A DNA stretch of 51,276 bases, filler included, from Jimgerdemannia flammicorona (GCA_003990765.1; 2 parts of 2 records of this genome joined end to end with filler, not necessarily neighbours in it); one strand, 5' to 3'. Counted from the first letter of the whole stretch, positions 511 through 45,315 are shown. Notes: a model not told the origin generated them from the sequence alone. Numbers and translations: made by a program.

Positions 511-515
511 TTTGG

Positions 516-19000: not shown

Positions 19001-21991
19001 CCCACTTATATACCCTCATATGTCCAACTAGAAATCATCTCCCATATATCTGCCTCCCATGGATTCTATAGTTTCTTCTCAGTCAGTAGGGAGAAGTTAA
19101 GGTGCCAATGTCCAGGTCCATCTCCACTTCCCCCAAATTGCCCCTGCTCTAACAATCCCTAGTGATCTGACCATAGGTACCACTCTACCTCCAAAGTCCT
19201 CTAAATATCTACTCTCCAGCAATTGGCAGTCAGGATTCAATCAATCCTCATATCTAACCCATTCACTCAATATATATAGACTCTCCATTCTCCCCACAGT
19301 GTTCTACCCCTATCCCCTAAGGAGCAAATATTCTCTACCTTCTCCTATACATCTAATCCACCACTCCTTCCACCAGTACCCCTCTCTCTATCTGTTCTAT
19401 CCACTTGAGGATTTCATACTATATTGAATTCTCTACCCAGAATATCTATGCCATCTTCCAAGAGAGCACCCTCCTCTAGAAGATTCCTGATCCATGCAAT
19501 CTGCTCACCCTGCTCAGCAGAATAATAGTAAGAGCCAACTCTCACTGATTCTCATCCAGGTCTATTCCATTCCCCCCACATCAGCCAGTCTTCCCAGCTC
19601 CTGATTCCATCTAGCTCCTCTTTATCTCTCCTTACTAGAATTGCCATCTTGTCAATCCAAGCTATAGCACCACTCTATTCTCTAGTCCACTTAACTTAAT
19701 CCAAATCATCCTCACATCATACATCCTGTAGCAAAAAGATATCAGCCTCCAATCTCTTAAGCCAAGAGAAAATATTCTTATACTGTCCAGAGCCCTGTAG
19801 CCTATTTATATTGAGAGAGAAAATATTGGTTATACTGTTCATTGGGAATAATATTTTTGAAGACAAGTCTCTGCACTCCCCTTACTGCTCTATCTCCATT
19901 CTTTCCCATGCTAGGTCTAAGTTATGTTCTGCAGCCCACTCCTCCTCCTTGACTCTCCTCCCTTTTATTCTCTCCAGAAGTTCATTCAGTTCCCCCTCCT
20001 CCTTTTCCTCAAAATCCTCATGATACTCCTGGCATACATTCTGCCAAAGCTATAGTTTATATCACTCTACTCAACAGTAGACCACTTGCTCACCAGCCAC
20101 CACTGCCAGCTCAGCTCTCTTCTTCTTATCAACCTCATATCCTTCCTCCTCTAAGAAAATTGCAAGTACCTCCTCCTTCAGCACCTCTACTACCCCATAA
20201 CTCTTATCCAATACTCCTCACTCATAACCCTTAGATCCACTTCCCCCAATTCCTCAGCAGCTAAGTTATTCATCATCTGGCACATCCAAAGTAGATTCCC
20301 CACCTTCTTCACCCCTGACATTACAGGCCAGCCCCCATCTAGCATTATTGTGTCAGCTCCTACACTTGCAGTCTCATCCCACTCTTCCACTGGGACATCC
20401 ACCAGTTCCTCCTCACCTATAGCCACCACCTGTTCCCCCTTCTCCACCTCAGGAATACCAAATCTCACTTACTGTACCCCATGTATTAGAATATCTACTA
20501 CCTCCTATCCTCTTGCTACAGGGCTCCTTCTGATAAACAGTATTAGGGAATCCTCCCATGCCTCCTCTCAGACCTCAAATGTACCATCCTTGTATAGATC
20601 TATACTCAGTGCCTTCCCAGTTTCCTCAGGACCCACCTCCTCCCCCTCACCACTTCTGCCAGTCCAAATACTTGCCTTGACTCCCCTACTCTTCTCACTA
20701 CTATCAGTAGACTTCTTCACCTTACTCCCTAGCTTCACCAGTAACTACCTCTGCTGCTTGCACTCCTGGGACCTCTCCCATATCTTCTTGTCAACTTGAA
20801 TCTGCTTCTCATCAACAATCTCCAAATGTATTGCCTCTATGTGAGCTTTTCAAGTCTTAGCCCTCCTCTCCACTACACCACTCTGCTCTTCCAAAGCCTC
20901 CAGCAGATCCTCCTCCTTCTCCTTTCTCCTCTTCACTCTCAATATCTTACAGGTGAAGGCTCCCCATATTATTACTGAAGGCCAGTCACTCATCTTCCCA
21001 GTGATCTCTCTTTCAGCCAGCTGGATCCTGATATCAATATCTTCTATCCTGAGAGTCATCCCCTTCCATACCTGAAATCCAATATCAACTATATCACCAT
21101 ATTCTGTCATTACCTCCTCAATCTACCTCTTGGTCTCAGCTGTCATCACTGTTGGCACTCCTTTCACCAGAAGCTGAACCACTCTGGGGTCTCACTGCAA
21201 GTAGCACACTATAGGGACTACCACCTCCCCAACAGCTACTTCTATCTTCAATGCTTCCTCCAATAGGCCTGCTTTCTCAAATCCCACTTCAACCCCCTCT
21301 AGTCTCTTCAGAAACCTCACCAAGGCAGCTCCAGCCACCTGCTTAGAGATAAGCCCCAGAACCATCTTCACTATCACTGCTAAGCCCCAGAAATACAGAG
21401 TCACTACAAACTCCAAGATCAACTTCTTGAGTAATGGTGCCACTGCCAACCCTGTCATACTATCAGCCAGGTCCTCCTTCCTCTTTGGGCCCTCTAGCCC
21501 AGCCCCTCCATCAGCCATCACATCTGGATTTTTTTTCAAATTCTCAGTCATGCCACCATCAGTAGTCTCTCTCCTACTCTCAGCTGCTACTTCTCCATCC
21601 CTTCCACCCACTGGCTAAGGTACTGTATCTCCTATATCCTCTTCCCTCTGCTTTCCCTTTCCCCCTACCAGACTGCTACAAGATCTCACAGGTCATCCTC
21701 CACTCTTTAGCATCTCAGTAAAGCTCTTTTTCTGCTGCCCTCTTGCTCCTCCTCCAGTACTACTGCCACTTCCTGAACTACCCTGCCTACTCAGACCTCC
21801 AAACAACCCCATCTCTAATCCATACCCTCACCTGATATATTGCCAGTTGAAGGCTCCAGGTCTACCCAATCTAGTATATATGTTGGCTTGCATGTTGTTT
21901 GCTATGATCTTAGTACCTTTCTCCAATAAACAACTTGAAAGTAAGTTGCAAAAACATGTATAACATAAGTGGTAACTGAGAAAGGTTGATC
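16069..21991 (-). mobile_element. Full-length degenerate L1/Tx1-like LINE
   Basis: 17-bp TSD AGACTATTG(A/G)TA(T/C)ATTT at 16052-16068 and 21992-22008. Degenerate poly(A) tail. ORF2 from ~19842 with AP-endonuclease start (IFSLNIN.L) and RT motifs GVLQRDPLSPILY / AFAGN (mutated QGDPLS / FADD) and VRYLGI. ORF1 remnants at ~19.9-21.9 kb. Many stops. Confidence 0.92.
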
Positions 21992-22413
21992 AGACTATTG
22001 GTACATTTGTAAGAACTGGTCATCTATGTCTAGGGTGAGGGCTCCCAATATTGTAACTGAGAATTCAAATCTCTCAGAAATGATATTTTCTATAATTTAA
22101 GATAATTTCTAGTAGTAATATCTATTATATAGATAGACTTGAGATTAGTTTTGACAATATCAGCTTTTTTGAGTTCAGATGAAGCATCCATTATTCTCTA
22201 ATAGAGATGATATAGATAGTATGAATAGAGTTATTCAAATGTATTTTACTTCTTCTAAGTATAAGGTTTTATATGGTTACAATATATCTTAGTCTTGAGT
22301 TAATAAATGTGGTTTGCAAACTTTTGATAGATGAGATAGAGTTCTTCTCATTTCAGTTTGAGTTTGATACTTTAGTTTTCTTTTATAATAGTATAGTATA
22401 CTAAGACTGATTG

Positions 22414-22415
<2 letters not shown>

Positions 22416-22492
<77 letters not shown>

Positions 22493-25258
22493 TTTTTTTT
22501 TTTTTATAGTTACTTGGACTTTGCTATTTATTACCAGTCTATACATATATTTACATTATCTCCTCCCACTACCCAATCTCCATAGGGGAACTCTCTCTCT
22601 CCTCTACCCCTTCATACTTGAAAACTACCCTGTCTCCTATGACCCCAACTATTCCCCCACTCTGTCTACATATCTTCTCTACCAAATGATACTACTGATA
22701 ACCCTGCAGTTCCCACCCATACCACCAACTTATCAGAGTATCCTCCATTAGTCCTTCCCATCACAATAGCTATACCTCTAAGCCCAGACATCTCTCATTC
22801 TCAAACACATATAGTCAGTATCCTGCCAACCCTACCCATATAGCCAGCACCTACCCTAAAGTAAGCTATTTCCTTCTAACCCCACCTACTAATCTATCTC
22901 ACAGATCCTCCCACTGATCCCTCATACCATTCTCCCTTTGCATAATACCCAATCTCTTCTTAACTGCTATCCAGAAGTTATTGAGTATCTCGCACTCCTC
23001 TAGCCAATATTCAGGCATTTGTATAAAACCCCCTTCCTGTCCAACATTATAGTACTCACAGTCAAAGATTCCCCCTCCACCAGGTGGCCAGAGTGAAAGT
23101 TGAGCATGATATTCCTCCTCAACATGTACCACCAGACCATCTAATACTTTGGTAGCAACTACTGCCAAATCTCAGCACTCTAGTTCCAGATCCTGTCTCA
23201 GTCCCACTCTTTACTAATACCTATCAACTGCTATCTGCTGGGCCACAGATCCTGCCCCAACTCCCTCTGATATTCAACTCTATCACTAATATCAAAGTTA
23301 CTAAGGGGGACACCCCCCAGCAACACTTAGTTCCATCTCTACATTGCTGGGCCCCAAGGCCTTTCTCTCTTATCTCCCTACCAACAAATGCCAATATGTT
23401 ATGCTCCATCAGTGACTCCCTACCAGAAGACCTTAAACCATATGTGCCTATTGTTCTGAAGCCCAACCAAGAACAAAAGATCACCTGTGGATCCTCTCGG
23501 TGAGAACCTCATCTCCCAGACCTTCTTCAATAGTAGAACCCAGCTACTACCCCCTAGCTCAATAGCTCTCTTCAGCCATTATGCTCTCAGACAGTATAAC
23601 TTCTTCAGGAAGTCAACCAGCCTAAGTCTCCCTCTAGTCACTGGTAAGGACAAAATTTCCCAGCTAATCTGACTCCTCCTCCCTGCCCAGATCTACCCTT
23701 TCACCAGTTTCAGTAGTCTCTTCATCACTCAGGCCAGGAAGTCCAGATGATATATCAGATATAATAACTTCAGTAGCCAGTAAGTATTCAAGATAGAAAC
23801 ACACTCTACTAGAGACAAGTGGTGGTCTCCCCAGCTTTGCAGGACCTTCCCCCAGATAACTATCTGCTGCTCTTATCTGAGTTTTAGAAGAATGAATTCA
23901 TATATTGACAGATAGATGCCCAAGTATCTCACTGCTTCTCCAGCAGAGACAATTGTGCCAATGACCTCTCCCCCTATCAGTCCATTATCTAGTACCATTG
24001 TTTCACACTTGCACTAATTAAGTTTAGCCCCAGAGTATGCCTTATACTACTCTACAGTCTCCTTGAGTTTCTCAACATTAGTAATTGAACCTAGGCCAAC
24101 TACTATATTATCTGCAAAAGTACTAACTTTCCACTCAATGCTATAAACTGAAAGCCCTCCTATCTTCTGCCAAATCCTATCTATTAGAGGCTCCAAGGAG
24201 AGTATATACAAAATGAAGGACAGTGGGTCTCTCTGGGGAACACTTCTATCCAGAGGAAAAGCTACCTCTTGATGCCCATTACATATGAGTGTAGCCCTGC
24301 TCTCTTCCAGTAAACTGACCATTGCTATATGGAACTAATGAGAGACTCCAATCCTGTCTAGTATCTTTGCTAACCAGACCCTTCAAATACAGTCATATGC
24401 CTTCTTCTAATCCAAGAAGATCAGGCACCCATCCAATCTACAGGCCTGTGCTCCTTCAATAATACCATATACCGAAGCCATGCTATTCTAAATGAGTTAG
24501 CCTCTAACAAATCCCTGCTACTCTACCCCTAAGACCTGCTGGGTTACCTTTTATAGCCTCACTACTACTACCTTAGTAATCAACTTCCTATTTATATCCA
24601 GTAGCATAATCAGTCTCCAGTTTCTCCAGTTCTCTCTCCTATTCTTGTTCTTATACAGCAGTGTCACCAGTCTCAGATCCTGCTCTTCTACCTATCTTCT
24701 GGACTACAGTACTAAGTCACAGAGTGCTCTCAGCTCTCCCAGCATACTGGGGACATCCACCATCTTCTTCCAAAAAGCCCAGAGCAGGCCATTCTCACCT
24801 GGTGCTATATCCAGCATAGTTGTGACAAGGACCTGGCAAATCTCCTCCTCCTGTACTGGCATCATCAGGTTATCCAGCTCTTCTGCCTATAGTGAGTACC
24901 AATCCTCCAAGGCAATACCAATAGAGGCATCTTCTACCCCATCCTCCTTCTTACTCTACAAGCCACTCCACTGCTCCTTCAGTGACCTGAGAATGTCTTG
25001 TATACCATATACTAATATTCTCTCAGAATTGAGAATCCCCTCTCACCTCTACTGAACTCTCTTAGCCCAAAGAGCCTTTGTGAGAAATATAGAGGGCCTC
25101 TCTCCTTTCTCTAGCCCCTGTTAATGGAGATGTGCTGCCAAACTCTGCATCTGCACTTTCTTCTCCTTCTGCAATACCTGTTGTAACTCCACAATCTTCT
25201 TTTTCACCTGTAGCAATCTCTAATCCTCTACTGTAATAACTCTCACTTCTACCCCTCC
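22416..25258 (-). mobile_element. 5'-truncated degenerate L1/Tx1-like LINE
   Basis: ~90 nt poly(A) tail (22416-22505), shared 3' motif, RT remnants SVPQRDPLSFILY and FADNIVVGL; colinear with the other copies. Confidence 0.9.
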
Positions 25259-25588
25259 CTTATCCTTTGGATAATTAGGGAAGTGGACTATTACTTAGGG
25301 ACTTAGTACACAATGTGTACCAAGAAGTCTTCAGTTTGAGGAAGCGCTCGCTTAAAGTAGTTGTAATGGCAGTGCCTTATCTTTCAAAGGTCTTTCTGGT
25401 TTGCCTTCTGTTTCAAAGATCTTTCTCTTGTGCCCTATTTCGAGGGTCTTGTTCTTTGCTGTGCACAGACTGAATTCACCTTGGAATTCAGGTTCAATGG
25501 GTTTACTTAAGTCTTTGGGGATTTATATACCGGTCTCAGTTCTGGCAGAAGTTAGCTAAGCTTCTGGAGTTTAGTCAGAAACACTAGA

Positions 25589-25688
25589 NNNNNNNNNNNN
25601 NNNNNNNNNNNNNNNNNNNNNNNNNNNNNNNNTTAATTAATTAANNNNNNNNNNNNNNNNNNNNNNNNNNNNNNNNNNNNNNNNNNNN
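25589..25688. other. Artificial scaffold gap linker
   Basis: 44 N + TTAATTAATTAA (stops in all six frames) + 44 N = exactly 100 nt. Confidence 0.95.
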
Positions 25689-25964: not shown

Positions 25965-26270
25965 TGTGACAAACCAAAACGTACCACCCGAATTATAACT
26001 TAGTCAGATGACATGAACACATAGCATAGTAACTAGACACAGCAACCATTGCTGCGGAAAACTGTATAAATAGTCAGACTACCAGATAAGGTATACCTGT
26101 GCCCAAACCTGCACACCTGTGCTGAACCAGCACACCTACCATAGATAGCAATCTATAATTAGCAATGTAGTAACCAGATAGCAACCAGAACTGTATAAAA
26201 TATCCCAGAGATAAGAGTGAATAAACCTCAGTCTGAAAATTCAAAGCAAAAGACAAGTCTGCCTACCACA
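25965..26270 (+). repeat. 5' LTR (TG...CA, 306 bp)
   Basis: Starts TGTGAC, ends ACCACA, contains TATAAATA and AATAAA. The first ~207 bp match 36319-36525. Confidence 0.9.
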
Positions 26271-27738
26271 TTTTGAGAGGAACTCTACAGCCACTGCTAG
26301 GAGATTGTGAGCTTTGCCATTTCTACTCCAGTCTACTTTCTGATATAAAAGATTGGTTCACTTACTAGATAAGCCTGAAGATTTGCCACCAAAGTTCAAA
26401 AAAGAACTTTATCACCATTTGAGTAATCTACCACTTAAGGAATGAGCTACCATTTTCAAGAAGAAGTCTGCTATATTTTTGGTTTGCTTGTCAGATAAGC
26501 CTGAAGAGAAACTGATATTTCCAGAGAGCCTGCATTAAGAAATCTTACCACAAGCCAGTCTCTTGATACAACTTTACAGTAGAGCCAGTCTAACAACATA
26601 ACTCTATATAAATGAAGCCAGTCTTTAATATAACTTACCAAGAATCTATGACATCTGAGTTATTCATCTATTTTCAGTGAGAAGAATCCATACCAGTATA
26701 ATTCTCAGTAAGCTAATTCAAGAGAATCTGTACCAAATTGAGTTGTCTGCTAAATTGTATAAAGAAACTATCAAATTACCAGATCATCATATAAAGAACT
26801 TGCTGTACTATACAGAGATTGTTATACTATACAAGAGATTGTCATATAGAAATCGAATCTGATTATCATACAGAAATCACATACTTTTGAAGATCATCAC
26901 ACTATACTAAAATTGTCTACTACATATATAAAATACCACTATACCTTAAGAACCATCTCAATAAGAAAATCACTCACAGATATCTAGTTTTGACTATTAT
27001 ACCACTAAATACCAAGAATATTTTATTGCTTTTAACAAAGTAACTAGAGGCTCAAGCCAAACTATATTAATCTCCAACTTTGTAATTTGCCTCTATTGAG
27101 TCAGATATATTATATTTGTGGGCTCAACTGGGAAGATTTCAAAATTGATATGACTTTTCAGCTCACAAGAACCCACAGTCAAACTGGATACATTTGATAC
27201 AATATCAATCTCTACCACTATAGGAGAATTAGTTATCACTAGTATTTGGACAGAAAGAGAAGTAATAACTTCAAGACTTACTAACTATATAGCATCAGAA
27301 GAATTCCAATCAGAAGAACCAGAAGCCAGTATAGCCCAAAATCCTCAACTAAAACAACTAGATGACATAGGAGGCCTTGTTAGAAATTTTGAAGAACTTG
27401 CCCAAGAACTAAAAGATCTTATTATACAAGTCTGAAATTCTGCAGCCAGATACCCCACAGCAGTTCCACCAATCTCACTCATTGAACCTTTATCACCAGC
27501 TCTTGCAGAATTAGAAGTAGCTCCTTTAAGAATACCTAGGCTTATTCTACTTTATCTAAGGTCTAGAATACTATTCTCAAAATACCCAAGTACCTTTATC
27601 TCTAGTGATAGTTCAGAAAGTGAATCAGAGTCAGAATCTGAATCAGAATCTAGACCAGAACCAGAATCAGAAGAAAGTGATGATGAAATAGCTACCTTAT
27701 TGCCCACTTTTATAAGATATCTAGAGGAAGACCCTAGA

Positions 27739-29343
27739 TTGGGATCGATTACTGATGTCAAGGAGCTCAAGAAGACAGTGGAGTGGTATGAGGAAAACTC
27801 TGGGGTGAAGCTTAACTGGCATAAGTGTGAAATAATGATACTAGGTAATAGTCTGGTAAGGGGAGAGATTATAGGAACAATCATCCCTACTGGTGAGGCA
27901 GTACAGTACTTGGGCATCTATTTATTAGTCTATGGGTCAGTTCTGCCCAGGCTTTGGTGAGAGCAGAGAATTAGAATCTGGGAGGAGACCATATGGGGTT
28001 GGGGGGGATGACACCTATCTCTGGCAGGGTGTGTCTTGATTTTGAATGTCTATTGGCTGCCAAAGTTGTGGTATCTGACTTATCATCTGGACTTCCCAGC
28101 CTGAGTGGTGAAGAGATTGATGAAGCTGGCAAAGAGATGGATCTGGGCTGGCTGAAGGAGTCAGATCAGTTGGGAGACCTTGTCCTTACCAGTGGCAAGA
28201 GGTGAACTTGGGCTGGTTGACTTTCCAAAACAGCTATACTGCTTGAGAGCATAGTGGCTAAAGAGAGTGGTGGAGTTGAGAGGAGGTAGTTGGGTCCTCC
28301 TGCTGCAGAAGGTTTGGGAGAGGTGGTCATCACTAAGAGGCTCAACTGGCAATCTCCTTTCATTAGTTGGACTTTGGAACACTGAACAATTATGTTATAA
28401 AGGATTCTGGTGGGGGATAGTAGAGGGGGTGCACCACATTGGAATTCATTGGCAAAGAAATGAAGGAGAGATGGCTTAGGACCCAATGATGTGGAGATGG
28501 GATCAGATACTGCTGAGTGGCATTCCTTTAATTGAGTTCAATATTAGTGATAAAATGGAATACCAATGGAGACTGGGCCAGGATCTGTAGCCTAGTGGTT
28601 GGCAAGGAGTTGGAATTAGAGAAGAGTGGAACTAGCATAGTGTTTGGACCTAGAGTGCTGCAGTGAGAAAGTGGATGCCGCCAAAGTACTAGATGGTCTG
28701 GTGGTATATACTAAGGCAGAATATAATGCTTAACTTCCACTCAGGTCACCTTATTGTAGGGGGGTGCTTTAACTGTGAGGAGTACCATAATGTAGAGTAG
28801 GAAGGGGGTTATATACAGATGCCAGAACATTGGCTAGGGGAGTGTGAGATGCTGGGGGACTTTTGGTAGGCCATTGGGGATCATTTGGGGGTAGGGTGTA
28901 GAGGAGATGAAGTGTGGGAGCAGTGGGAGGATTTGAGAGATCAATTGGTAGAAGGGATAGGAAAGGAGTAGCTTACCTTAGGCTGGGCTTTGGCCATTTG
29001 GGTGGGGCTGGCCAGTTACTGGCTATTTGTTTTTGAGGATGGGAGGAGACAGGGCTTGGGAGACTGGTTATTGCAGTGACATAGTCTTATGGAAGATACC
29101 CTGACAGGCTGGTGGCTTGGTTGGGAACTACAGAGTGGTTGGAGGTACTGCTTGGTAGAGAAAATCTGTAGACAGAGTGGGGGGAGAGTTGGAGTAGTGA
29201 GTGAGAGGGTGGTCTTTATTTATGAGGAGGGGAGGGGCTCCCCTATGGGGATTGGTTAGTGGGTGGTGATACTGTATACTTATTCATAGACTGGTAATAA
29301 AGATAGAGTCTAAGTGACTATAAAAAAAAAAAAAAAAAAAAAA
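27739..29343 (+). mobile_element. 5'-truncated LINE nested in the gypsy gag gene
   Basis: 16-bp TSD AGAGGAAGAC(C/T)CTAGA at 27723-27738 and 29344-29359; poly(A) 29322-29343; ORF2 C-terminal remnants (VKLNWHKCEIM, YLGI, LPKLWY). Removing it restores gag EEDPREFLD. Confidence 0.95.
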
Positions 29344-32300
29344 AGAGGAAGACTCTAGAGAATTCCTTGATAGAATTAAAGGAATTGCAGCCCTGAGAAA
29401 TCTCTCCAATAAAAGAAAAATTTTCATCTACAAGATCTAGCTCAAAGAATCAGTTAGAGGAATTTTCTACTAAATAACAAATGACTCTCACTTAGAACTG
29501 GTAATGTAAATACAAGCAACAGCATCTTATGAGCTAGAATACATAGCCATGGTCCACTGGCTCATCAAAAAATATACAGAAAATGAAACCTGCCATAAGG
29601 CTCAAGAATTCATCATGGAGATGAAGATGAATCTTAGAGAATCATCCAGAGCCTTCTTTACTAGAATTTAGAAAAGAATACATATAGTCAGGTTCAATGC
29701 TACCAACTAAGATATCATAGGTCTGATGACCTTTATGAATAGAATTCCCCTAAACATTACCCAGTATGTCTGCACCCTAGGTATCAGAAGGTCTGAAGAG
29801 CAAGTTGATACAGTCTAAGAATTCTTTAATATTAGACAAAAAACTACCTAGAGTGACTATGATAAGAAGGATGATAAAGAAGACATTCTGGTCAAAGCCC
29901 TATAAGGACTCCTTCAAGGACAAGAAAGATCTGAAGAAAGAAGGCCAGCTAAGGAAGGAAAGAAAGATAGGAGTGAAATTCAAGACCTTAGTTCTAAGTT
30001 GGACAGATTGGTTGGATAAATTGAAAAACTCACTATATGCAAAAATCAGAGTTATCAAGATAATAGAGGATATCCAATACAAAGGAACTAAGGTTATCTA
30101 TCCAGAGATAACAGGAGCTATCAGCAAGAAGAAAGAAGATACTCTGTCTGAGATAGAGCCTAAGTCTAATACTTCTACTGTAGACAATTCAGATACTATG
30201 CCACTGAATGTGATAATAAAATAAGTGACCAAAGAGATTCAGAACCACTAAATTGAAGGAATGAAATCCAGTACAAGAAGACTAAAGTCTATCCTATTGA
30301 GGATTTTGAAGAAGAAAGCAACAGTGAAGACTACAGTGACCTAGACTTGTACCCAGTCAAAGTCAGCATCTGAAAGACAGTTTATCTAGTAGAGAAAAGG
30401 AAGAGACCTGTTGGAAGACCATCCAGGAATATCAGCAGAAGAATCATCCAAGAAAAAGATGAAGAACATGAAGAGGAGCAAGTAGAAATACATCTCCAAA
30501 CTCTCTCATCTTTTGTCTCTGAGACAAATGAGTTGCCACTAGAGGATGAATAAATGGAGCAAGAAGAATAGGAGCCTGCTACCCCAAAGCCTAAAAAGAA
30601 GTATACCCTGAAGACCATGCCCAGAGATATCTATAATGAAGCCTGGCAGAAGATTCAAGAAGCTAAGATAGAAGTCTCTCTCCTACAGTTCCTGCAATTA
30701 ATACTAGCTAGAGTCTGAAACAAATTGCTGAGGACCACCAGGTCTAGCACTAGTCAAGTTCCAATCCTATAGCAAGAGTCAGCCCCCACACCTATCCAAG
30801 CAATAGAGAGATATATCAGCACCTACTTACATAAAGACATTAGAGGACAAAAGATGAAGATTCTCATAGATACAGAAGCAGCTATCTGTATTATTGCCAA
30901 AAAAATTCCTAGATACCCTCCAATGGCCCATTGATAGACTATTCAATCTTAGCATCACAGTAGCAGATGGAGCCCGAACTCAATCTCTTAGAGAAGTATG
31001 AAATATTACCATCTCTCTTAGACACATTCAGTTCTCTATCAAAAGCTATTATTACTGAAGCTATCACCTATGACATAATTCTTAGCACTAACTGGATGAA
31101 GGAAATGAATGCAGTTGTTGATATTGGTCAATAAGTACTCAAGTTTAACTATTGAGACAAGAAGTATAGAGTTAAGGTGACTAGCTATAAGCAATTTAAA
31201 AAGAAGAAAAAGGTCACTATTCAGAAAGAATATATTAGTAGTGAAGAATCTATCACAGAAGAGGAGGAAGAATCTAAAGATAGAAATGATCCCAGACTCA
31301 AACCCTAGATCAACCTAGTGGATGACAGGCCAGAAGACAATATATGGGCCAAGAATACCATCTCTATTACCATTAGAGCCATTATAGGAGAAATCAAAAG
31401 ATACTCTATCTGCCTCAAGAGACATAAGTGCTCTGAGCACTCCTCCAAGATCATTGGGATAAGAAATTCGTCTGGTATAGCCTACCCTGAGTGCAGAAGA
31501 AAGAAGAAGAAATACAGATATATTCCAGAAATATCTGCAGTCAAAGCTGCAGAAGTACAAGTAATTTGGAGTCAAGAATCATCTGAGGAAGAAGAAACCC
31601 CTAAACAGGAGATTCCTGAACAAGAAGCCCTGAAGAAGAAGAGGTCTCTGAACTCATTCCCTGGGATGACTCTTGCTAGACACTACCTGAAGATAACAAC
31701 TCTTGGAATATAGATGAAGGATTCAGCACAATCTCCATTATTTCTAAGAAAGAAACTCACCAAGAAAGAGCTTTTTGGCTAGGAAGATGTCCACACCAAA
31801 TGATCTTCCACTCTCTCTAAGACTACTACTATTAGTGCCATCTACTAGACTAGTAAGAGAGACAGAGACCCCAAAGACCAGAACCCCTGGCTATAGTTGC
31901 ATAGTCAACTACCTTCTAAGAAGTTATCACTAAGTTGCAAAGTTGATTTAGGGGACAAGACCTCTTCACTTAAACAGAAGTACACTCCTTGTCCACTCTT
32001 CCCACAACTTATGACTAAGATGGGTACTAATTCCCAAAATAATAAGAAATCAACAACTGGGAACATCACTTCTGAGCAATGAGATATTGCAATTATGGAA
32101 GACACCCAGACTGCCAAGACTGCAGACATCAGAAGATTCATCTTAGTTATAATATTGTGATCTATATCTTGAAGAGAGGAGATAATAGAGGCCAGATCTG
32201 AAAAAGCCAGACCAAGAAGCTAGGAAGAAGGACCCTTAAGATCTATGATTAGGAGAAGACATCCTAGCTTTCATCAGACATACAATCTGCCAAGAATAGG

Positions 32301-32494
32301 TAAAAGATGCCACCAACTTCATAGAAGCCCTAGACTCTATAGGAAGAAGAGAAATAAACTATCTCTGAGACCCCTCTACTGGAGCCAGATGGCTACACCT
32401 CAACCTCAGAGCCTGGAGGTTCTCTGCTAGTAGAGTCTCAGCCCAAGGATAGCCCAAACTCAGTAAAGATATTGCCCAGTATGCCCTGCTATAT

Positions 32495-32886
32495 CCTAAG
32501 GCCAAACCCCTGACCAAAGCCTACCCAGAATATATATATAGGATATGATCTTCATAGTCTAGAGGATGAATCCATCAAGCTTGGAAAAATATTCATAATC
32601 AGAAACTGGACTAGCCATGCAGCCATCTCAAGAAACTTACATCCAACTGACCTCAAGGTCTGGACTTGCCAGACAAGGAATAACTATAGAAGAAGGAACT
32701 ATTGACTCAGGATATACAGGCAAAATCAAGGTCATCCTACACAACAGTAGTATAGAATAGTACTAAATTATTAGAGGACAGAAGATTGCTCAAGCAGTCT
32801 TCATAAAGGTCAAGATCCCACAATTATAAGAAGTTCCCAAACTGACTGAAGGAATAAGACAAGCCAAAGAATTTGGAAGTTCAGAC
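32495..32886 (+). pseudogene. Trimeric dUTPase domain within the gypsy pol (stops, frameshifts)
   Basis: All five motifs are readable: GYDL (32541), SRSGLA (32653), GTIDSGYTGKIKV (~32695), GQKIAQ (~32776), R..KEFGSS (~32857-32883). Confidence 0.92.
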
Positions 32887-35800
32887 AAGAAGAAAGTATA
32901 TCTCCTTCAAGTCAACCACCTCAAGAGGAATATTCTCTAGCAAATATACTGCCAGCCAGTCAAACTGCACAAGAATCTTATTCTGGAGCCTGGAGAGCAA
33001 ACCACCTTCAAAATCTTTGCACTACCTGACCCCAGAAATCTCTTTTTTGAACCTAATGAAGATATCCCATACCTGGATATAGAAGGACATATATTTTCTA
33101 ATAAGATGAATCTAGTATACTCCCAAGTAACCAACCAAAGTTGAGAGACTATCATTCTGTCAAAAGGAACCATCATAGGACATCTGGTGCCTTTTCTCAA
33201 TCAAACTTATAGAGAAGTTTATGAACTGAACTTATTGGGAAATAGCAAAAGGTTCTAGAAGAAAGAAAAGGCTCCTCTGCGACCCAAGAGACAGTGAAGC
33301 CTTCCACCAATATTGGAGAAGAATTGACACCTCAGCAATAGCAACAATTAGTAGAACTTCTCAACAAATATCAAGATATCTTCACTACTGATTATAGCAA
33401 CCTGCTATATAATCCATCATATCACCATAGCATAAATACAGAAAATGCAACACCCATCTGACAGAAACTCTATAGAATACCCCATAATCTAAAGATATTT
33501 GAAAAGGAGCACATTCAAGAACTCTTGAACAATAGAGTCATCTGATCCTCAACTAGCCCTTGGGCCAGCCCAATACTTATTGTATCAAAGAAAGGAGGAT
33601 GGAGACTCTGTGTAGATTACAGGAAACTCAATTCAGTTACTGAAAAAGATACCTATCCTTTATCTAGAATCAATGACCTCTTGGACTAGTTACAAGATGT
33701 CAGATACTTCAGTAATATAGACCTTTTCACAGGATTCTACAAGATTCCCATGGACCCAAAAGACATTCAGAAGACAGCCTTCCTTACCCTAGGAAAACTG
33801 TTTGAGTATCTTTGAATGTCTTTTGGACTTTGCAATGAACCCCCCATATTCTAGAGGATGATGAATTCAGTCTATACCCCTCTGATCCACTACTACCTAA
33901 TTGTATATATAGATGATTCCAACATCTATTCAGCAAATTTCAAGGAATACCTATACCATCTAGAAGAATTTTTCAAGCTCACCTATAAGAACCATCTGAG
34001 ACTCAATATCAAGAAATGCTATTTTGGAAAACAGAAACTTAAATTTCTTAGATTTATAGTTTTAAAAGAAGAAACCCATTCAGATCCAAAGAAAATAGAG
34101 AAGATCAACAATTGGCCAGTACCCAAGACCACAAAGGAAACACTATCATTTCTGATACTAGTATCCTAATACAGAAGGTTTATCAAGGACTTTGTCCAAA
34201 TTACTGCCCTAATTCGAATTCTTCTCAAGAAAGAAGTAGCTTATAAATAGACAGAATCATAAAAACTAGCCTTCAAGGAACTCAAGCACTATATGACCAT
34301 AGCATCAATCCTTGTCTGCTATAATCTACAGAAGCCATTTATCTTATATACAGATACTTTCAAAGATGGTCTAGAAGCAGTTCTAGTCCAAGATAGATCT
34401 GACCAACAGCACTATGATAGCTTATGCAAGCTGAGCTACCAATTAGCAGCAGATGAACTATGGCAGCACCAAATTGGAATATCTTATAGTCATATGGGTA
34501 GTCATCCTATTTAAGTATTACTTTATCAAGAAAAGATTCACTCTGATTACAGACCATGCAGCCCTCAAATAGCTATTCAATCATAAGGAATCTACTGGAA
34601 TTCTAGCTTGCTAGATCCTTATCCTTCAGGATTACAAAATTACCATTATTCACAAAGCAGGGAAAGCTCACAACAATATTGATATACTTTCCTACCAGTT
34701 CCAATGAACCAGAAGAAGAGTGTCCCAAGGAACTACACTTTAAAGGAAGCTCCTCAGACCATTAAGACATAAGAAGATCTTATCTGAAAAGAATATTGGA
34801 AAGCCCATCAAGGACAGACAAACATAGAAGAAAAGCTATGAATGATATATCAATATTGGCCCAACCTTAGAATTCAAGTCTCAGATATACTCAAGAAATG
34901 TGATACTTGCCAGAAGTATCAAGGAAGGAAGAACTATCAAGCACCACTGCAACCAATTATATCACCAGACAATATCTTTCAAAGATAGGAAGTAGATGTA
35001 ATTGGACCTCTACCAGTTATACCAAGAAGAAACAAGTATATTCTTGTATTTGTGGAATATCTGATCAAGTGGCCCAAGGCTTTCCCAATAGAAATCACAA
35101 ATGTCTTAACTATTGTAAGCCTTCTCCATAGACTTGCCCTCAGATATAGATCCTCAGAAGAACTCATCTCTAACTGAAGCACAGAGTTTATCAATAACAT
35201 AATCACAAGTTATACTCAAATTTACAAAATCTACCTCAAATAGACCACATTATACTACCTCCAGACCAATGGTATAACAGAAAGAATGAACCAGACTATA
35301 AAGAAAGAACTTACCCAAGTCAATCCTACCAACTGGGACCTCTGCTTATCTGAGATCCTATGGGAAATTTGGAATACCCCTGCTATCTCCATCAAACAAA
35401 AGCCATTCAAAATGATGTTTACCAAGAAAACCAGAACTGCTGACTATAAGAATCTTAAAGACCTCCTCAAGAAGACAGAACAGTTATATAATCAGACCCA
35501 AGTTTAGATTACCAAAGCCTAAGAAAGAGAAAAGAAGTACTATAATCAGAAGTAGAAGGATTAGAAGATCAAGATTAGAGATCAAGTACTAGTTTGGAGA
35601 AGCATAATTAAAATGAATTTTGCTGCCAAACTGAAGCCCAAGTGGGAAGAACCTTATCTTGTATACAATATCAGAGGAATCAGCATCTATTTAAGAAGCA
35701 TGGATAGACAAACCCTAAGGATACCAGTATACATCAATTATCTCAAGATATATCTCTCTCTATATCATAAATCAGAGAGTTGACAACTGCCTTCAGACTC

Positions 35801-36318
35801 TTATCCTTAGCTCATTTCAATCACTATCAGTTCTCTATCCCAATTCCAAGAAGTCAATAGGAATATCCTCTAGAAAATTTGGATTCATCAAGAGAATCTT
35901 ATTCTGGTCAGATAATTACTACAGGTCCATCAACTTCAGACCCATTATATAATTGGAGAACAATTGCAGAACCTTCTAGCCCCAGAACAAACATATATCA
36001 GAAATACTATAGAACTATCAAGAAGAGACATCACTGCAACAGACAGGCTCTATACCCTTTATAAATGAAACCCTGCAGCCCTGATATAGGCACAATTCTC
36101 CTGGTGTAATATATGAGGAATGAACCTAGTCACCTACCTGAGCATCATCAATGCTGTTAAAATCCTATTCCCAGAAGAAGAAGAACTCCTGGAATAGAGT
36201 AACCATGGTACAGATGATGAAGATGATGGAACAGTTATTAATGCAGAAGATGCTTATCTACACTAAGATGATAACTAAAGGACAGTCTGAGGACAGACCA
36301 TCCTTTAGTGGGGGCTGA

Positions 36319-36525
36319 TGTAATAAACCAAAACATATCACCTGAATTATAACTTAGTCAGATAATGTGAACATATAGCATAGTAACCAGACACAGTAAC
36401 TATTGCTACAGAAAACTGTATAAATAGTCAGACTACCAGATAAGATATATCTGTGCCAAATCTGTACACCTATACTAAACCAGTATACCTACCATAGATA
36501 GCAATCTATAATTAGCAACATAGTA
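36319..36525 (+). repeat. 3' LTR, truncated at 36525
   Basis: Follows the PPT, begins TG, aligns with 25965-26172 with 25 transitions and one 1-bp indel, then switches to an unrelated repeat. Confidence 0.9.
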
Positions 36526-36840
36526 GGTCCCACTCCTAACTTTATTATGAAATTTCCTAATTGAGTATTGTCTGTAGCAATACACCAATTCAACTAAGCT
36601 GGTCTTTGTTTCTTAAACTTTCTGAAATATGAAAAATGCTGAATATTCAGAACTAGTCTGAAAAAGGACTTTGGTTGAGATGTCAATCTGATCTTAAAAT
36701 CAATAAGCATAGAGGATATACTTTATATGAAATTGATCTTGACCTTAAGAAAATAGTCTTTCAGAATATCCAAAACTTCCAGAAAACCCTTCCAGAACTA
36801 TATAATAGTTATTCTAACAAGTAACTCTCTTATAGAGATC
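36526..36840 (+). repeat. Dispersed repeat replacing the end of the 3' LTR
   Basis: Reverse-complement match to 15081-15445 with an internal indel. Confidence 0.8.
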
Positions 36841-37039
36841 ATGATCTGATCTTAGAAAAACTCTGGCTCACAAAATACAATCTAAATATTAATTGATATA
36901 AGAATAAAGTTACTCTACTTTAAAAAGAAGTCAACATTACTATTAAGATAGACAAGCCTATGAACAAGATCTCAGTTACAATACTATCAGTAATATAATA
37001 TAAGAGAGTACTCAAGAAGGTAGTATATACTTTATTATA

Positions 37040-38128
37040 ATAGTTAGCTAGTTGATTTTTAGCAGTAGTTGAGAGCTCTTCAGAGCTGGTGGGGGTGCCA
37101 TCTTATAGAACTGAATAAGAAGTCTGCTCTGAGTGAGAAAGATTGACAGACTGTAATATAAGAGATTCTGGTGGAGTATTATAAAGGCCTGGCTGGCTAT
37201 AGAGTTGGTAGGGTCAGAAGTTAGAGAAGATGTGAGCTCTGGGCAGTAGTAGTGGAGGCTAGAGCTACTCTAGATTGGTAGCAGAAGTATTTCTTAGCTG
37301 AGGCTATGGAATGGACTAAGATAGGACCTCTTGAGAGGTGGTCAGTAGATTGGTAGGTAGCTGGAGTTGGTGAGATATAGAAGTAGAGATAGATCTGATA
37401 TTGAGTAGCTACTTTATACTAAGTAGTACCCTCTTGATGCTGGGTTATATAGTAGTAGTTTTTGAGAAAGAATGTGATACTGAGTTATCAGACAGGCTGG
37501 ATGGCAGTAGATGGTTATTGAGATTATAAGTAGTATACTGAGCTCTATGGAAAGATAGTTCAGATACTAGAGTAAGTCTTAGTGATCTGCTCTAGAGTAG
37601 AAGATTATTAGCAGAGCTTAGAGAAATATTGGGACTCCAGGTGTAGGAGACTTGGAGATTCTATCAGTATAGTAGTCTGAAGATAGTTGGTGGGAGAGAT
37701 TGGTGATATCTGAGATAGTATTAGTCAGATTTTGAAGATATGGGTCTTGATGGTATCATACTGGTAGTGGGTCTTTGAGGGTGATCAATGAATAGAAATA
37801 AGAGAGTTGGTAGAGAGATAGTGGTGACTTCTTCAAGAAGTAGTATAAGGATAGTAGTATTAGAAGAAGTAGTAAGAGATTGAGACTATAAAAAAGATAC
37901 AAGACATTATTATGAAAAGTTGGTATTATTTAGTATTGAGTAATAGAGAGGTATAGTAGAAAGTCAGTATTGAGTAATTGTTTTTTTAAGATAGTTAGTT
38001 AACCTCTTCTTGGATAGAGTTTGTGTTAGTGGTTTCTAGATCTATAGATTTGTATATTGTTTATAGATTTTATTTTAGAATAATAAAAAAGTCCAAGTGA
38101 CTATAAAAAATAAATAAATAAATAAATA
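37040..38128 (+). mobile_element. Heavily mutated 3' fragment of the LINE family
   Basis: Colinear with 50110-51260 (e.g. GAGGCTATGGAATGGACTAAGATAGGACCTCTTGAG vs GAAGCTATGGAATGGGCCAGATCAGGCCCTCTTGAG); ends AGTCCAAGTGACTAT plus an A/TAAA tail. Confidence 0.85.
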
Positions 38129-38930
38129 TTTCAGATATTACAGAATACTTTTCAACCTGTGAAAATTCCTTAAATATAGAATTTTATAGTTGTAATTTTT
38201 GAGTTAGATGCAGTTCTAGTTTTTTGTATATATTATATATTGCTTTTTTTTATTTCTAGTTTGTATTCCTTTTTTGAGGATATAGTTAATTTATTTTTTT
38301 TGGTTTCAATATATATCTTATTGAGTAGATGACAACTCAATATGTCAGTATATGACTTACATCATTTCATCAGTTTTATGTCATTCATCAAGTAATTGTA
38401 TAAAATACATGACCTATGCAACTTCAATAAAATCACCTCTTACCCCTCTTTCATACAGAACTTAGCTACTAATTAGAGAAATCTGCTAATTTACTACATT
38501 ATACAGAACCTGCACTATTTAGGAAATTACCAAAATCATCTGTGTTATATAAACAAGAGAACTTACACTTTTAGAAACTGAACATTTTGTTACTTTTTGA
38601 CAAGGTAACTGGGGGCTCAAGCCAACTTGCATAGCTGCCCCACCTTGTAATTTGTGGGCACGTTACAGTATAATGTATCACAGATTACAAAATGTTGTAC
38701 AAGTATTTATTCATATGTATTTTAAAAACTTTACTTCTTTCAAAGGTATTCTATTATTGATGAATTTCGTCTAAAGGAGGCAAGCTGACCTCAGTTGATC
38801 TCCCATAAATATGTATCAGTTGCCGCAGTAAATGTCGATCTTCCCCTAAATTTAACAGTGCCGCCGCAGTACATGTTGATCGCCAATAAATAAATATCGA
38901 CATGTGTTCAATTACCGCCCAAAATCCATC

Positions 38931-40194
38931 ATGGGTCCCCCTTGCTTCCATCCCTTTAACGACAACTACCTCCCTTCCGAAATCATTGAGCAAATCGTTC
39001 AGTACCTCCCCGGCCACCTACTATTCGAGCTCAAAGACATCTGTGTGGCCCTCTCTGAACCTTGTCGAGACTGCCTCTTCAAGTACGCTTACAAACTCGG
39101 TCTCGTACCCTTATGCGCTCCGAAGTTTCCCTTACTCGAGAAAGTCGACAATGACCCGCTGGGATGGCGTCGTGAAGCTCCATGGGGTATGTGCTCGGGC
39201 CTTTTCGCATGCAAGCGCAGCGTCAACAACGTATACGAGCACATGGCGCTCAGCGTCCGGGACCTGTTCCATATTGCTGGATCCAAGGGTAACGAGCGAG
39301 GGGTGCGCGAGATGTGGGACGTAATTAGCGTGCTTCATTTGGACGAGGAGGCGTTGTTCAGCCAGGTCGTGAAAGATTTCCACGAGGTGCTTGATATCGG
39401 TGGCAAACCCAGCCAGATTGCTCTATGGAACGCGTACATCGAGTCAGAGTATTATGACCGCAACGTGGGGTAGGTTTTGTTGGATATAATATCCTTCCAG
39501 AGTCTTTACTTCTCCTTTTTTGTACATGTCGCGCAATGCACTCATCAACAAATGAACATACTCTCCGCTTCCAAGCTTTCAAATCAACGCAAATTTCCAG
39601 ATCTATATCAATTCTCTCTACAACCGATATTACGTCCAATATCGAGGCGGCTCCAGGCCACCATTCAACGAAAGAGTCGAAACCTGTTTGATCGGTAATG
39701 ACGCCATCTTCCGAAATATTGGCCGGTATCGTGTCATGCTGGCCAGATTCTGGGCGCTCAGGCATCAGTTATTTCCGTTCGACTACGATGAAAATCGAGT
39801 ATGGTTCGACAGGCGGAGGGACATGGTGGAGGATCTGGAGAAGTATGAGGCTGTGAGTGCGAAACCGTTTGTGAACGAATGCCAGAGGCGGATGTGGTGC
39901 GCCAAGTGGAAGGCGGAGAGAGATGGATCGGATAAGCCGGTGGAGGGGGTGAAAAAAAGTTTGGCGGAGCAGAAGTGGGAGAAGCGGAAGGAGGAAGTTT
40001 CGAAGCAGCTTAAAATCGAACAGGAGAGAGAAGAGAGTCGGAAGAAAAGAATCGAGCAGAAGAAAAACCAGAGCAAAAAAAAATCGACCTCGACATCGAC
40101 AAGCGTGGTTGAGATTAAGGGAGAAAGTTCGAAGCACAAGGGCAAGAAAAAGAAAAATTGGGTTCGGCCCTTGAAACCGACATCAGATAAATAA
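38931..40194 (+). CDS. Putative F-box domain protein with Lys-rich coiled-coil C-terminus
   Basis: ATG 38931; N-terminal LPSEIIEQIVQYLP..LL..L..IC fits the F-box pattern. An intron 39465-39600 (GTGGGG...TTCCAG) joins the two long ORFs in frame. CpG-normal composition. The donor site is weak. Confidence 0.6.
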
Positions 40195-41188
40195 TTGCAC
40201 TTTGTATAATTATTACGTGTATAAAAAAAAAAAAAAAAAACAATTATATCCAAATAAACCAAATCTTTACCGTTTGTAAAATTTATAATAGAAATGGACT
40301 TTAAAGTACAATTTTACATGTCCCCTTCTTGCAGCAAATACAACACATGGTTCATGCAGTGGCCCGGGTTAGTCAGATAGGTGCATCATGCTACATCCTA
40401 AACAACTGCTCTTATGATTCCATCGATCCGCTCAGCTTGATGGCAAGAATCTATATCGATACTTCTCCACGGACGACCCACTCGTCGCTCGAAGACATAA
40501 ACGTTCCGTCATTGAAACGCCCTCCAAAAAACCAACCCGTCGACTGGACGTATGGCGTACTATTCTCGCCCCACGCTCGAATCCTTGCTGTCTTGCTCCT
40601 CGATCTCGTTGTGGGTTTTCATAACTGCCCAAATGTGGTTGTGTTTAGCCAACTTTCCAGTGTCGAGCTCTAGCGCCCTCACCAATATGGTGTCATTCCA
40701 GTTCTGTTTGAGGATTTCCCGTCGCGGTCGAAGTAGTTTCATGCTCGAGGAGTCAGAGCCAAGTTCTTGTGGCGAGCGTCCCAATTTACATCTTCATCCA
40801 TTCCCAACTATGATTTCGTCATATATTGTGATGCTGGAGCGTGATTGTTACAGGACGCAATAGCGGCAGCTTGGAGACCTTCTGCCACAATCCTTTCCGG
40901 GCAGGATTCTAGGTACTTCTTTGAGCCCAATTCTTACGTGCTAATTTGAATTTATTATCAGCTTTAATCACAATCGGCCAAACGATAAGTTCACAAATTG
41001 CCATAGTATAAGGATACAGCAATAGAGAATGTCTTTTGCTTACAACGACACTAATTGATCACTGGCACAGTTGCTTGCGAACCTCAACTGAACAGTCAAA
41101 GTCGCAGGGCCGACAGGTTATATATAACACAAAAACTATTACATTGTACCCAGCGAATAGAACAGTAATTGACGATCCAAAGAAATAT

Positions 41189-41255
<67 letters not shown>

Positions 41256-41569
41256 CCTTAGGAAGTAGACCCTTGCCAATATTCAAAGCAAATATCGTAA
41301 TATTGCAAATATTCCTTGATACTCTTTTGTTGATTAGCCTGCTCTTCTGTTTGCCCCATGAGCGTTCAGCTTGTTTACTTTGATCTAGGATCTATAGCGT
41401 CCGACCAGTCCGAGTAGGGCGGACGATGATAAAGTGTGCTCCCTGAATTTACTTCTACATTTTTGCGGCTACATACACCCAATTATATAGCCCGCTTACA
41501 TTCGCTATTCTTGTGCTGCTCTTTGTTATGCTCCGTTATAGTCGCCGAAAAACACTGCGCCACAAATAC

Positions 41570-44291: not shown

Positions 44292-44342
<51 letters not shown>

Positions 44343-44773
44343 CGCGCCGTGCCTTAGTCGTATCATGGTCTCAAATCTTTGGACTTCGTGTATTATCAAG
44401 CAAAATCGTTGCAGTACAGTAAAAAGCCTCCTAACAACCAATTTCCAAATCACTTAAAGCTCGCTTCCTATGTGGAAGACGACAAACGTGCCAGTGAATA
44501 GTAAGTATACGGAAAATACAGAACAGCAAGCACGGATATGTTAGCTGATTGCGGAAGTGGGCATAAGGATCTGTCAGAAAATTGGGAGGCTTTCTACTTA
44601 CCCATGATGTCCCGTCCGCATCCTCCGCTCTGACCTCGTAACCGTGATTTCCGATGAGCGTGCTACTACCTTTGAGAAAGTGGTCGGTCGCAAGGTGGCG
44701 GAGTGTGAAGGCCTGATTGATTTGCCAATTCTACACAAGAGAGAGTAATATGAGTTTTGCACTACGGCTCGGA

Positions 44774-44820
44774 GCATCCAAACGGTCATCCAAACGGTCA
44801 TCCAAACGGCCATTCAAACT
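44774..44820. repeat. 12-bp tandem repeat (CATCCAAACGGT) x~4
   Basis: Directly visible; lies in the inferred intron between MIR2 and MIR3. Confidence 0.9.
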
Positions 44821-45315
44821 TGATTCTCTCAGCAAAAAGTAAAAAAGAACATTGCCTGCTCTCCGGCAGTGAGGGGCCTCTCAACGATCCAATGGTCATT
44901 ACTGTCGGAGTCCTCATAACCAGTCACTTCCTGGCCTACCCCGCTGGGGGGCGAGTTCACTTTATGGGAGTGAAGCTTTCGGCCGGTCGGGACGTGCCGG
45001 AGCCGGATGATGTCATTATAGCGGACGGGCAGAATCAGAGAGCCGGCAACACGGTCCATAGGATGCGAACTGTGGGTAATTTGCTGTCCGCAAAGACCTG
45101 GAAATTGCTCGTTATATCAGTTGTCCTTGTGAGGCCATCTCTCGTTCGTCCGATATCAATGGCTCACCATGTGCTGTCCGCACCCGTCGCTGTGCGTATA
45201 CTTTGCGTCCTTCGTGATCAGGTATCTCCATGTCCCAAGCGAAGAATATTTGAGGACAATTCTGTCTCCATACATATGACATTAGGCGGTGTTTGGCCGG
45301 CGTGGTTGTCGGCGT

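Follow-up and report, generated by a model that had tools for sequence, protein, structure and literature searches.

A degenerate Ty3/gypsy element with strongly unequal LTRs

The window analysed here is a 51,276-nucleotide stretch of the Jimgerdemannia flammicorona genome (GCA_003990765.1) in which two contigs are joined by an artificial linker (N44-TTAATTAATTAA-N44, positions 25589–25688), so that adjacency across the linker carries no meaning. The second contig harbors a degenerate Ty3/gypsy long terminal repeat (LTR) retrotransposon of 10.6 kb on the plus strand (25965–36525), for which a first-pass annotation had proposed C-to-T hypermutation resembling repeat-induced point mutation (RIP). 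A 591-residue exon of MGM1 (mitochondrial dynamin; 9692–11467, minus strand) matches the deposited Jimgerdemannia flammicorona protein with 100% identity, which places the host in the Endogonales (Mucoromycotina) and, as the annotation had surmised, outside the Dikarya. Med23 domains (Pfam) are located at 2973–4244 on the first contig, thus indeed across the linker from the LTR element. Both contigs share repeat families (36524–36808 matches 15211–15444 with 83–87% identity, and a fragment of a long interspersed nuclear element (LINE) is shared with 71% identity) as well as the same composition pattern, and only these features tie the second contig to the same genome, five of its ORF products having returned no match in an exact look-up.

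Two plus-strand LTRs of 208 bp (5′ LTR, 25965–26172) and 207 bp (3′ LTR, 36319–36525) flank an internal region (26173–36318) in which gag, protease, reverse transcriptase (RT), RNase H and integrase follow in order, and a purine-rich tract (GTGGGGGCTGA) is located directly upstream of the 3′ LTR. All of these internal features are on the plus strand. The Pfam matches in this region (RVT_1, RT_RNaseH, Integrase_H2C2 and dUTPase) positioned the RT at 33588–34052, the RNase H at 34408–34635 and the integrase zinc domain at 34803–34922, with a dUTPase (PF00692, E = 6e-14) at 32596–32883, between protease and RT. Being encoded by a retroelement, this dUTPase might play into the handling of uracil by a host in which cytosines are deaminated. 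Two motifs that the annotation had listed as broken proved to be so when compared with their intact consensus: the gag knuckle (30170–30211) reads TAC..TGT..TAC..TGT (Y..C..Y..C), and the protease motif (30869–30880) reads GAT ACA GAA GCA (DTEA).

Global alignment of the LTRs over 207 aligned bases revealed 25 transitions, no transversions and one indel, in full agreement with an earlier manual count. Such a 25/25 outcome has a probability of 4e-5 if two thirds of the substitutions are expected to be transitions, and of 0.004 if 80% are. The alignment also reproduced the reported contexts of these differences (CpA 14, CpG 7 and CpC 4, with CA/TG double differences counted as ancestral CpG) and the location of the T/A allele in the 3′ LTR at 22 of the 25 sites (binomial P = 1.6e-4). 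The 5′ LTR is near-unmutated, with the T/A allele at 3 of the 25 differences and three CpGs kept, while the 3′ LTR is hypermutated, with 22 of its 87 inferred C/G sites converted to T/A and no CpG remaining. Per available site, the changes in the 3′ LTR affected 5/10 CpG, 13/36 CpA, 4/16 CpC and 0/25 CpT (P = 4e-4 for CpA versus CpT).

The load of the 3′ LTR (22/87, 25%) matches that of the element interior, where ~27% of the C/G sites are changed. Because no clean target-site duplication was found around the element (GATAT versus GGTCC), the origin of both LTRs from one insertion, which would make them identical at the start, is an assumption. If it holds, the matching loads indicate that the element inserted essentially unmutated and was then mutated in place.

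As a separate observation on the 5′ region of the element, positions 27016–27089 resemble a 75-bp fragment at the edge of a gene compartment (38580–38654; 75% identity), and the copy inside the element has A/T where the edge copy has G/C.

Repeat copies differ by transitions with a C-to-T direction

Transitions also prevailed between the other young repeat copies of the window. Two tandem plus-strand units of ~650 bp each (518–1813) differ by 147 transitions versus 4 transversions, and a minus-strand fragment of the same 650-bp family (14402–14750) differs from 1373–1782 by 86 transitions and 13 transversions. The repeat adjoining the 3′ LTR (36524–36808, plus strand) differs from its minus-strand relative on the other contig (15211–15444) by 32 transitions and 3 transversions. 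Including the LTRs (25:0), the four pairs total 290:20, and in three of the four both copies are mutated about equally. The 147:4 and 86:13 pairs, together with a LINE copy (LINE A) that has a CpG observed/expected ratio (O/E) of ~0, are located on the MED23 side of the linker, where the same pattern had been claimed to exist. The three pairs of target-site duplications in the window (16052/21992, 27723/29344 and 15841/15878), previously said to differ by transitions only, indeed displayed four differences in ~44 bp, all of them transitions. Older LINE pairs were less extreme (306:142, 517:315, 290:196 and 153:54), as expected if they also carried the divergence between active subfamilies.

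Since a pair by itself gives no direction, the changes were polarised with conserved pol codons, defined by at least 70% agreement among at least 30 homologues (P0122–P0241). In the LTR element, 79 of 255 such codons were changed. The single-step changes comprised 40 C>T or G>A versus no T>C or A>G, with opportunities of ~50:50 (P = 7.5e-13), and 35 of these 40 were located at non-CpG sites. The remaining codons consisted of 19 transversions, five multi-step changes that were all C>T/G>A, two ambiguous cases and 13 other multi-step changes. In the MGM1 control, 12 of 330 conserved codons were changed, with single-step changes amounting to one C>T/G>A, two reverse changes and three transversions. 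Comparison of four LINE copies with distant homologues yielded 51 C>T/G>A changes, 11 reverse changes and 42 transversions. Protein searches whose scope did not extend to near-length proteins revealed no close intact relative of the LTR pol (best 44% identity, among proteins of length 651–2000) or of the LINE (best 33% identity).

A second polarisation made use of external DNA relatives, which can stand in only roughly for the ancestor. Two metagenome contigs related to the element came up in a scan, L001 (75.5% DNA identity over 32067–35755) and L004 (76% over 33987–35826), while L002 and L003 (36% identity) were excluded from all counts. L001 (4101 bp; matching part 156–3842) has a GC content of 0.457 and a CpG O/E of 0.36, and its 804 homologue-covered codons contain no in-frame stop, versus 20 stops in 766 codons of the window copy. 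Fifteen of these 20 stops can be reached from the L001 codon via C>T or G>A (CAG 5+1, CGA 4, TGG 4 and CAA 1). In a three-way comparison of 1769 columns, 191 C>T/G>A changes, 36 reverse changes and 81 transversions were specific to the window copy, the corresponding numbers being 34/40/33 for L001 and 23/40/22 for L004. The conserved-codon changes in the transversion and other multi-step classes are about as frequent in L001 (21 and 15) as in the window copy (19 and 13), indicating that these classes are family-specific and that C>T/G>A alone is inflated (9 versus 40). For the sequences compared, these two independent polarisations, by conserved codons and by external relatives, settle the direction as C>T and G>A.

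L001 itself is partly depleted of CpG and displays no non-CpG bias, so CpG decay and a non-CpG mutator look separable. It also seems that the element family is, or formerly was, active somewhere.

The stops of the LINE copies are supportive of the C-to-T direction, though noisy. The 40 aligned stops in LINE A face TGG (10), CAG or CAA (5), a stop (13) or another codon (12) in LINE B, and the 46 stops in LINE B face TGG (14), CAG or CAA (4), a stop (17) or another codon (11) in LINE A.

The polarised counts bear directly on the explanation that no special process is at work, the pattern then being due to a high but non-directional transition bias, to an assembly or sequencing artefact, or to copies that were mutated from the outset, having come from degenerate master elements. 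Majority-rule counts that are symmetric among three in-window copies (given below) would suit this explanation, as would the lack of a clean target-site duplication proving a single insertion of the LTRs. It is at odds with the 40 versus 0 changes at conserved codons, with the 22 versus 3 changes between the LTRs, and with the external polarisation, in which C>T/G>A changes affected 167 of 612 sites at which L001 and L004 agree (non-CpG sites included) versus 33 of 726 for the reverse T>C (4.5%). Moreover, transitions have also accumulated between the target-site duplications that later insertions created. The intact state of the adjacent genes and the full identity of MGM1 to the deposited protein further disfavor an artefact. 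We therefore regard this explanation as scarcely credible.

Hypermutation ends at the edges of repeats

As the first-pass annotation had pointed out, CpG is nearly absent from repeats and abundant in genes: the CpG O/E is 0.03 in repeats (30,989 bp) and 1.05 in unique DNA (19,911 bp). At four repeat edges, this ratio drops from 0.9–1.4 to 0.0 between adjacent 200-bp windows (for example from 1.44 to 0.0 at the 5′ edge of LINE C), and wherever the repeat boundary could be placed, the switch falls at most 25 bp away from it. The CpG-rich flank of the genes stops 22 bp before the repeat fragment at 14402–14750, and on the second contig the dense CpG of the gene compartment begins 7 bp past the last repeat fragment (38580–38654). 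Hypermutation in the window is thus restricted to repeats and ends at their edges.

Context and strand dependence of the changes

Among the sites at which L001 and L004 agree, those changed in the window copy comprised 19/40 CpG, 72/222 CpA, 52/179 CpC and 24/171 CpT. On the window branch, CpA and CpC were thus changed at 29–32%, compared to 4.5% for T>C and 4.6% for transversions, and the non-CpG rates amount to six times the reverse rate. Within the four young pairs, the fraction of sites changed in either copy was 0.70–1.00 for CpG, 0.39–0.70 for CpA, 0.25–0.57 for CpC and 0.00–0.36 for CpT. The value of ~0.5 per strand for CpG is near saturation because one hit per dinucleotide destroys the site, and nearly all CpGs are gone. 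The per-site order is CpG > CpA ≈ CpC > CpT in all data sets, so that the initial description of the changes as CpA-dominated stands by count (14 of the 25 LTR differences) and falls when expressed per available site.

These rates also address the explanation that methylated CpGs decay under DNMT1/DNMT5-type CG methylation while the remaining divergence is neutral, with no non-CpG process. CpG is the most mutable context, its O/E contrasts sharply between repeats (0.03) and unique DNA (1.05), and the (CpA+TpG)/(ApC+GpT) ratio is high in the repeats, as such decay would give. CG methylation of transposons is moreover reported for the related Rhizophagus (PMC8647823), and the near-intact L001 and L004 are partly CpG-depleted (O/E 0.31–0.36) without non-CpG bias. 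This explanation is nevertheless contradicted by the excess at CpA and CpC over T>C and transversions, by in-window pairs that share no CpG and still differ by 147:4, and by the non-CpG position of 35 of the 40 polarised codon changes. Furthermore, the parts of Dataset S1 of PMC9963178 that were checked list no DNMT1 or DNMT5 row for the species. CpG decay as the sole process is therefore very improbable.

In the pooled in-window data, the 5′ neighbour of the changed cytosine had no effect (0.22–0.24 for A, C, G and T) and neither did the CHG/CHH distinction, but the 3′ neighbour mattered strongly. Compared with the external relatives, a mild 5′-neighbour effect could be observed (AC 0.34, TC 0.29, CC 0.22 and GC 0.23). 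Both strands were hit equally, with C>T at 266/970 (27.4%) and G>A at 193/710 (27.2%) on the sense strand, and the mutation load was even over 3.7 kb. One RIP event mutates one strand, which gives rise to strand-coherent runs. No such runs were detected, either against the external relatives (233 observed versus 225 ± 10) or between the in-window pairs (116 versus 118 ± 7.5). The C>T and G>A rates per bin did correlate negatively (P ~0.025 each) for 150- and 300-bp bins, but for these two of six bin sizes only, so this signal of strand tracts is a hint that fails across the bin sizes.

Neighbour and strand effects are informative on a cytidine deaminase unrelated to methyltransferases, be it AID/APOBEC-like editing of cDNA or a deaminase recruited to silenced chromatin. 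C>T being the sole elevated class, the affected sequences being mostly retroelements, and the mild 5′-neighbour effect in the external comparison (0.22–0.34) are all compatible with such an enzyme. The equal strands, the missing 5′-neighbour effect within the window and the strong 3′-neighbour effect speak against it. Editing of cDNA in particular cannot make the LTRs of one insertion differ, nor can it alter target-site duplications or tandem genomic repeats. The differences in these three kinds of sequence are post-integration, and neither a strand asymmetry nor a consistent 5′ motif was observed, so that cDNA editing is not the cause. Altogether, we consider a deaminase unrelated to methyltransferases unlikely, although one that is recruited to chromatin and acts on DNA is still conceivable.

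The RIP indices were computed for 56 one-kb repeat windows, using as criteria a high TpA/ApT, a low (CpA+TpG)/(ApC+GpT) and a composite index above 0. None of the 56 windows passed the stringent triple test, eight passed the classic pair and ten had a composite above 0, at a median substrate index of 1.33. Since the decay of CpG refills the pool of CpA and TpG, surveys based on such indices would call this genome unaffected.

RIP in Neurospora is CpA-dominated. Canonical RIP of this type, depending on RID/Masc1 and acting premeiotically in homology-triggered bursts on duplicated DNA, shares a number of traits with the pattern in the window. As in the RID-dependent RIP of Pezizomycotina, the changes are directional transitions on both strands and confined to repeats, with many nonsense mutations (CAG, CGA or TGG to stop) and few indels, as seen from the frame of LINE A, which is kept despite 109 stops. 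Both copies are about equally mutated in three of the four pairs, and the weak hint of alternating strand tracts at 150- and 300-bp bins would also be in line with it. On the other hand, the context preference (CpG > CpA ≈ CpC > CpT) differs from one in which CpA far exceeds the rest, all 56 repeat windows fail the stringent indices (with a positive composite in only 10 of them), strand-coherent runs are missing, the bin-level hint is lost over the six bin sizes, and the 5′ LTR is spared. RID-1 is moreover described as occurring only in Pezizomycotina (PMC9963178). Canonical RIP is consequently quite improbable here. The annotation is borne out as to a directional, repeat-restricted hypermutation with a large non-CpG share, and not as to the Neurospora RIP signature, which the window does not reproduce. 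The two alternatives originally offered for this process, RIP-like or driven by non-CpG methylation, are inseparable from sequence alone.

LINE copies, short repeats and gene compartments

Apart from the LTR element, the window contains several LINE copies, three of which have endonuclease and/or RT domains. LINE A (16052–22008, minus strand; CpG O/E ~0) carries endonuclease and RT in one reading frame, in which 109 of 1986 codons are stops and no frameshift separates the domains. These domains stay in frame over more than 760 codons, and point mutation thus far outruns indels. Its 17-bp target-site duplication displays two transitions. LINE B (22438–25588, minus strand) belongs to the same family (65.6% identity over 2.6 kb) and is truncated at the contig end, while LINE C (46110–51276, plus strand) has a reverse transcriptase domain and a poly(A) at the end of the window. 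A plus-strand LINE 3′ fragment with a poly(A) tail (27739–29343) is nested in the LTR element, and its 16-bp target-site duplication (27723–27738 and 29344–29359) harbors one C/T difference. At 15841–15888, a poly(T) run inside an 11-bp target-site duplication looks like a LINE tail without a body.

The LINE families display a GC skew of about ±0.45–0.55 over kilobases, with a G-rich and C-poor sense strand, and such skewed stretches extend over 16000–25588 and 46110–51276, and also 27739–29343 and 37000–38000. The polarised LINE changes on the sense strand (35 G>A versus 16 C>T) merely mirror this base composition. The sense strand of the LTR element mildly favors C over G.

Positions 1 to 1968, which include the tandem 650-bp units, contain no CpG at all. 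The unique gene compartments, to which no strand was assigned, span 1946–14401 (compartment 1, with MED23 and MGM1) and 38655–46109 (compartment 2, with a BTB protein among others). Both have a CpG O/E of ~1, and compartment 1 served as the unmutated control. A run of ~60 A at 41187–41255 is located within otherwise unique, CpG-normal DNA of a gene compartment. Six copies of a 24-bp tandem repeat at 45278–45463 lie in a CpG-rich gene compartment and have kept their CpGs, two 66-bp registers offset by 24 bp differing by 8 transitions and 2 transversions. Short tandem repeats in unique DNA thus escape. Scans of the window for tRNA genes and Rfam families returned no matches.

A proposed methylation-linked route to repeat hypermutation

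The dependence on the 3′ neighbour, the symmetry of the strands and the confinement to repeats are what would be expected from a process linked to a DNA methyltransferase. According to Navarro-Mendoza et al. (PMC9963178), RID-1 is exclusive to Pezizomycotina, and DIM-2-like homologues are present in Endogonales and Glomeromycota. In Dataset S1 of the same paper, J. flammicorona AD002 is represented by three DIM2-class proteins (JGI 471264, 479070 and 483080), each with BAH and C5-methyltransferase domains, and in the parts of the dataset that were checked neither DNMT1 (part 229) nor DNMT5 (parts 238 and 239) has an entry for J. flammicorona. Since these published tables feature DIM-2-class enzymes without RID, they favor a route that is methylation-linked and RID-independent. 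We accordingly lean, with moderate confidence, towards a hypermutation of repeats that works without RID and is linked to methylation of the DIM-2 type.

In this reading, a process acting at the DNA level has hit the repeats in place, after their insertion, and converted C to T on both strands. Affected are the Ty3/gypsy element with its 10.6 kb, the three LINE copies and short repeats that are either dispersed or in tandem. Nearly all of their CpGs are destroyed and roughly a quarter to a third of the CpA and CpC cytosines converted, with far fewer CpT. The agent is probably the cytosine-methylation machinery that marks heterochromatic repeats, which would make the process a RID-independent relative of RIP. 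In this machinery, methyltransferases of the DIM-2 class would act on the cytosines of repeats whatever their context. The methylated cytosines might then be lost either by deamination of 5-methylcytosine or by an enzyme-promoted C>T conversion.

A number of observations weigh against this methylation-linked scenario. The 5′ LTR is a repeat and yet almost untouched (3 changes versus 22 in the 3′ LTR), which would not be expected of a strictly homology-driven process. The LTR in question adjoins a flank with a CpG O/E of 0.77, at the edge of the mutated domain, and its escape could be due to promoter or edge protection, or to an origin of the two LTRs from different copies. Majority-rule polarisation yielded 66 C>T/G>A versus 65 reverse changes for the 650-bp family with its three in-window copies, and 291 versus 191 for the LINE 3′ ends. 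These symmetric counts read as saturation with parallel hits plus subfamily structure, although on their own they would fit a non-directional transition bias as well. The external relatives L001 and L004, at 8% transversions from the window copy, are rough proxies of its ancestor. The link to the enzymes stems from a table in one paper and concerns another assembly of the species (AD002). The dinucleotide order, with CpG highest and CpC equal to CpA, matches no characterised DIM-2 system. It departs in particular from the reported Zymoseptoria mutator described below, which operates in another phylum, in that CpG has reached saturation and CpC and CpA are affected to the same extent. Finally, all of this draws on a single window with ~31 kb of repeats and on two metagenome contigs.

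The broader proposal is that Endogonales possess a RID-independent, RIP-type defence in which an expanded set of DIM-2-class methyltransferases would do the work, with a preference for C before G, A or C and not before T, and which would be invisible to index-based surveys. This is a possible but rather doubtful extension.

Relation to known systems

The closest parallels to a DIM-2-linked process come from ascomycetes. The window order CpG > CpA ≈ CpC > CpT differs from the CpA-dominated one of Neurospora. DIM-2 has been reported to mediate RIP in Neurospora via a heterochromatin pathway (Gladyshev & Kleckner, 10.1101/115501). This DIM-2 branch of RIP in Neurospora crassa resembles the process considered here in that repeat cytosines are converted to thymines by a DNMT1-like methylase, in connection with heterochromatin and without the need for RID (10.1101/115501). 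It differs in being premeiotic and genetically demonstrated, while the pattern in the window is read from DNA alone. In Zymoseptoria tritici, Dim2 is reported to drive CA>TA mutations in transposons during mitosis while CG is spared, with more than 95% of the mutations being C>T inside methylated transposons, a process that was termed "a mitotic version of RIP" (PMC8016269). Like the window pattern, this mutator does not require a strand-burst signature (PMC8016269).

Outside the ascomycetes, the bimodal CpG distribution, with depleted repeats and genes at expectation, is shared with Rhizophagus irregularis (PMC8647823) and many basidiomycetes. In contrast to what CG methylation with CpG decay entails in R. 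irregularis, the excess in the window extends past CpG to CpA and CpC (29–32%). For Zoophthora radicans and other Entomophthorales, a RIP-index signal outside the Dikarya has been described, for which the authors flag caveats (PMC11105155). That report likewise makes a RIP-like claim for a transposon-inflated, early-diverging fungus outside the Dikarya (PMC11105155), but it draws on composite dinucleotide indices alone, whereas in the window the indices are negative and the evidence consists of aligned, polarised substitutions.

RIP-like mutagenesis is regarded as a trait of the Dikarya, chiefly of ascomycetes. A kingdom-wide k-mer screen is reported to have found the RIP signature only in Ascomycota (PMC12543289), and a Rhizophagus study that refers to Venice et al. 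2020 states that Mucoromycotina had yielded no RIP signature (PMC8647823). For Endogonales, the literature searched contained no account of RIP-like mutation; the genome paper of the species lay outside this search and may bear on the matter. The polarised alignments from this one Endogonales window reveal a strong C-to-T load, which is confined to repeats and goes undetected by the standard indices.

If this load proved to be genome-wide, index-based surveys would undercount such defences, and the question would arise why a 240-Mb genome equipped with one still consists of ~77% repeats. It would also suggest a function for the DIM-2-class paralogues of Endogonales and perhaps of Glomeromycota, and would place the origin of methyltransferase-linked repeat mutagenesis deeper in the fungal tree. 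Should the defence in Endogonales be real, C-to-T mutagenesis of repeats would either predate the split between Mucoromycota and Dikarya or have arisen more than once.

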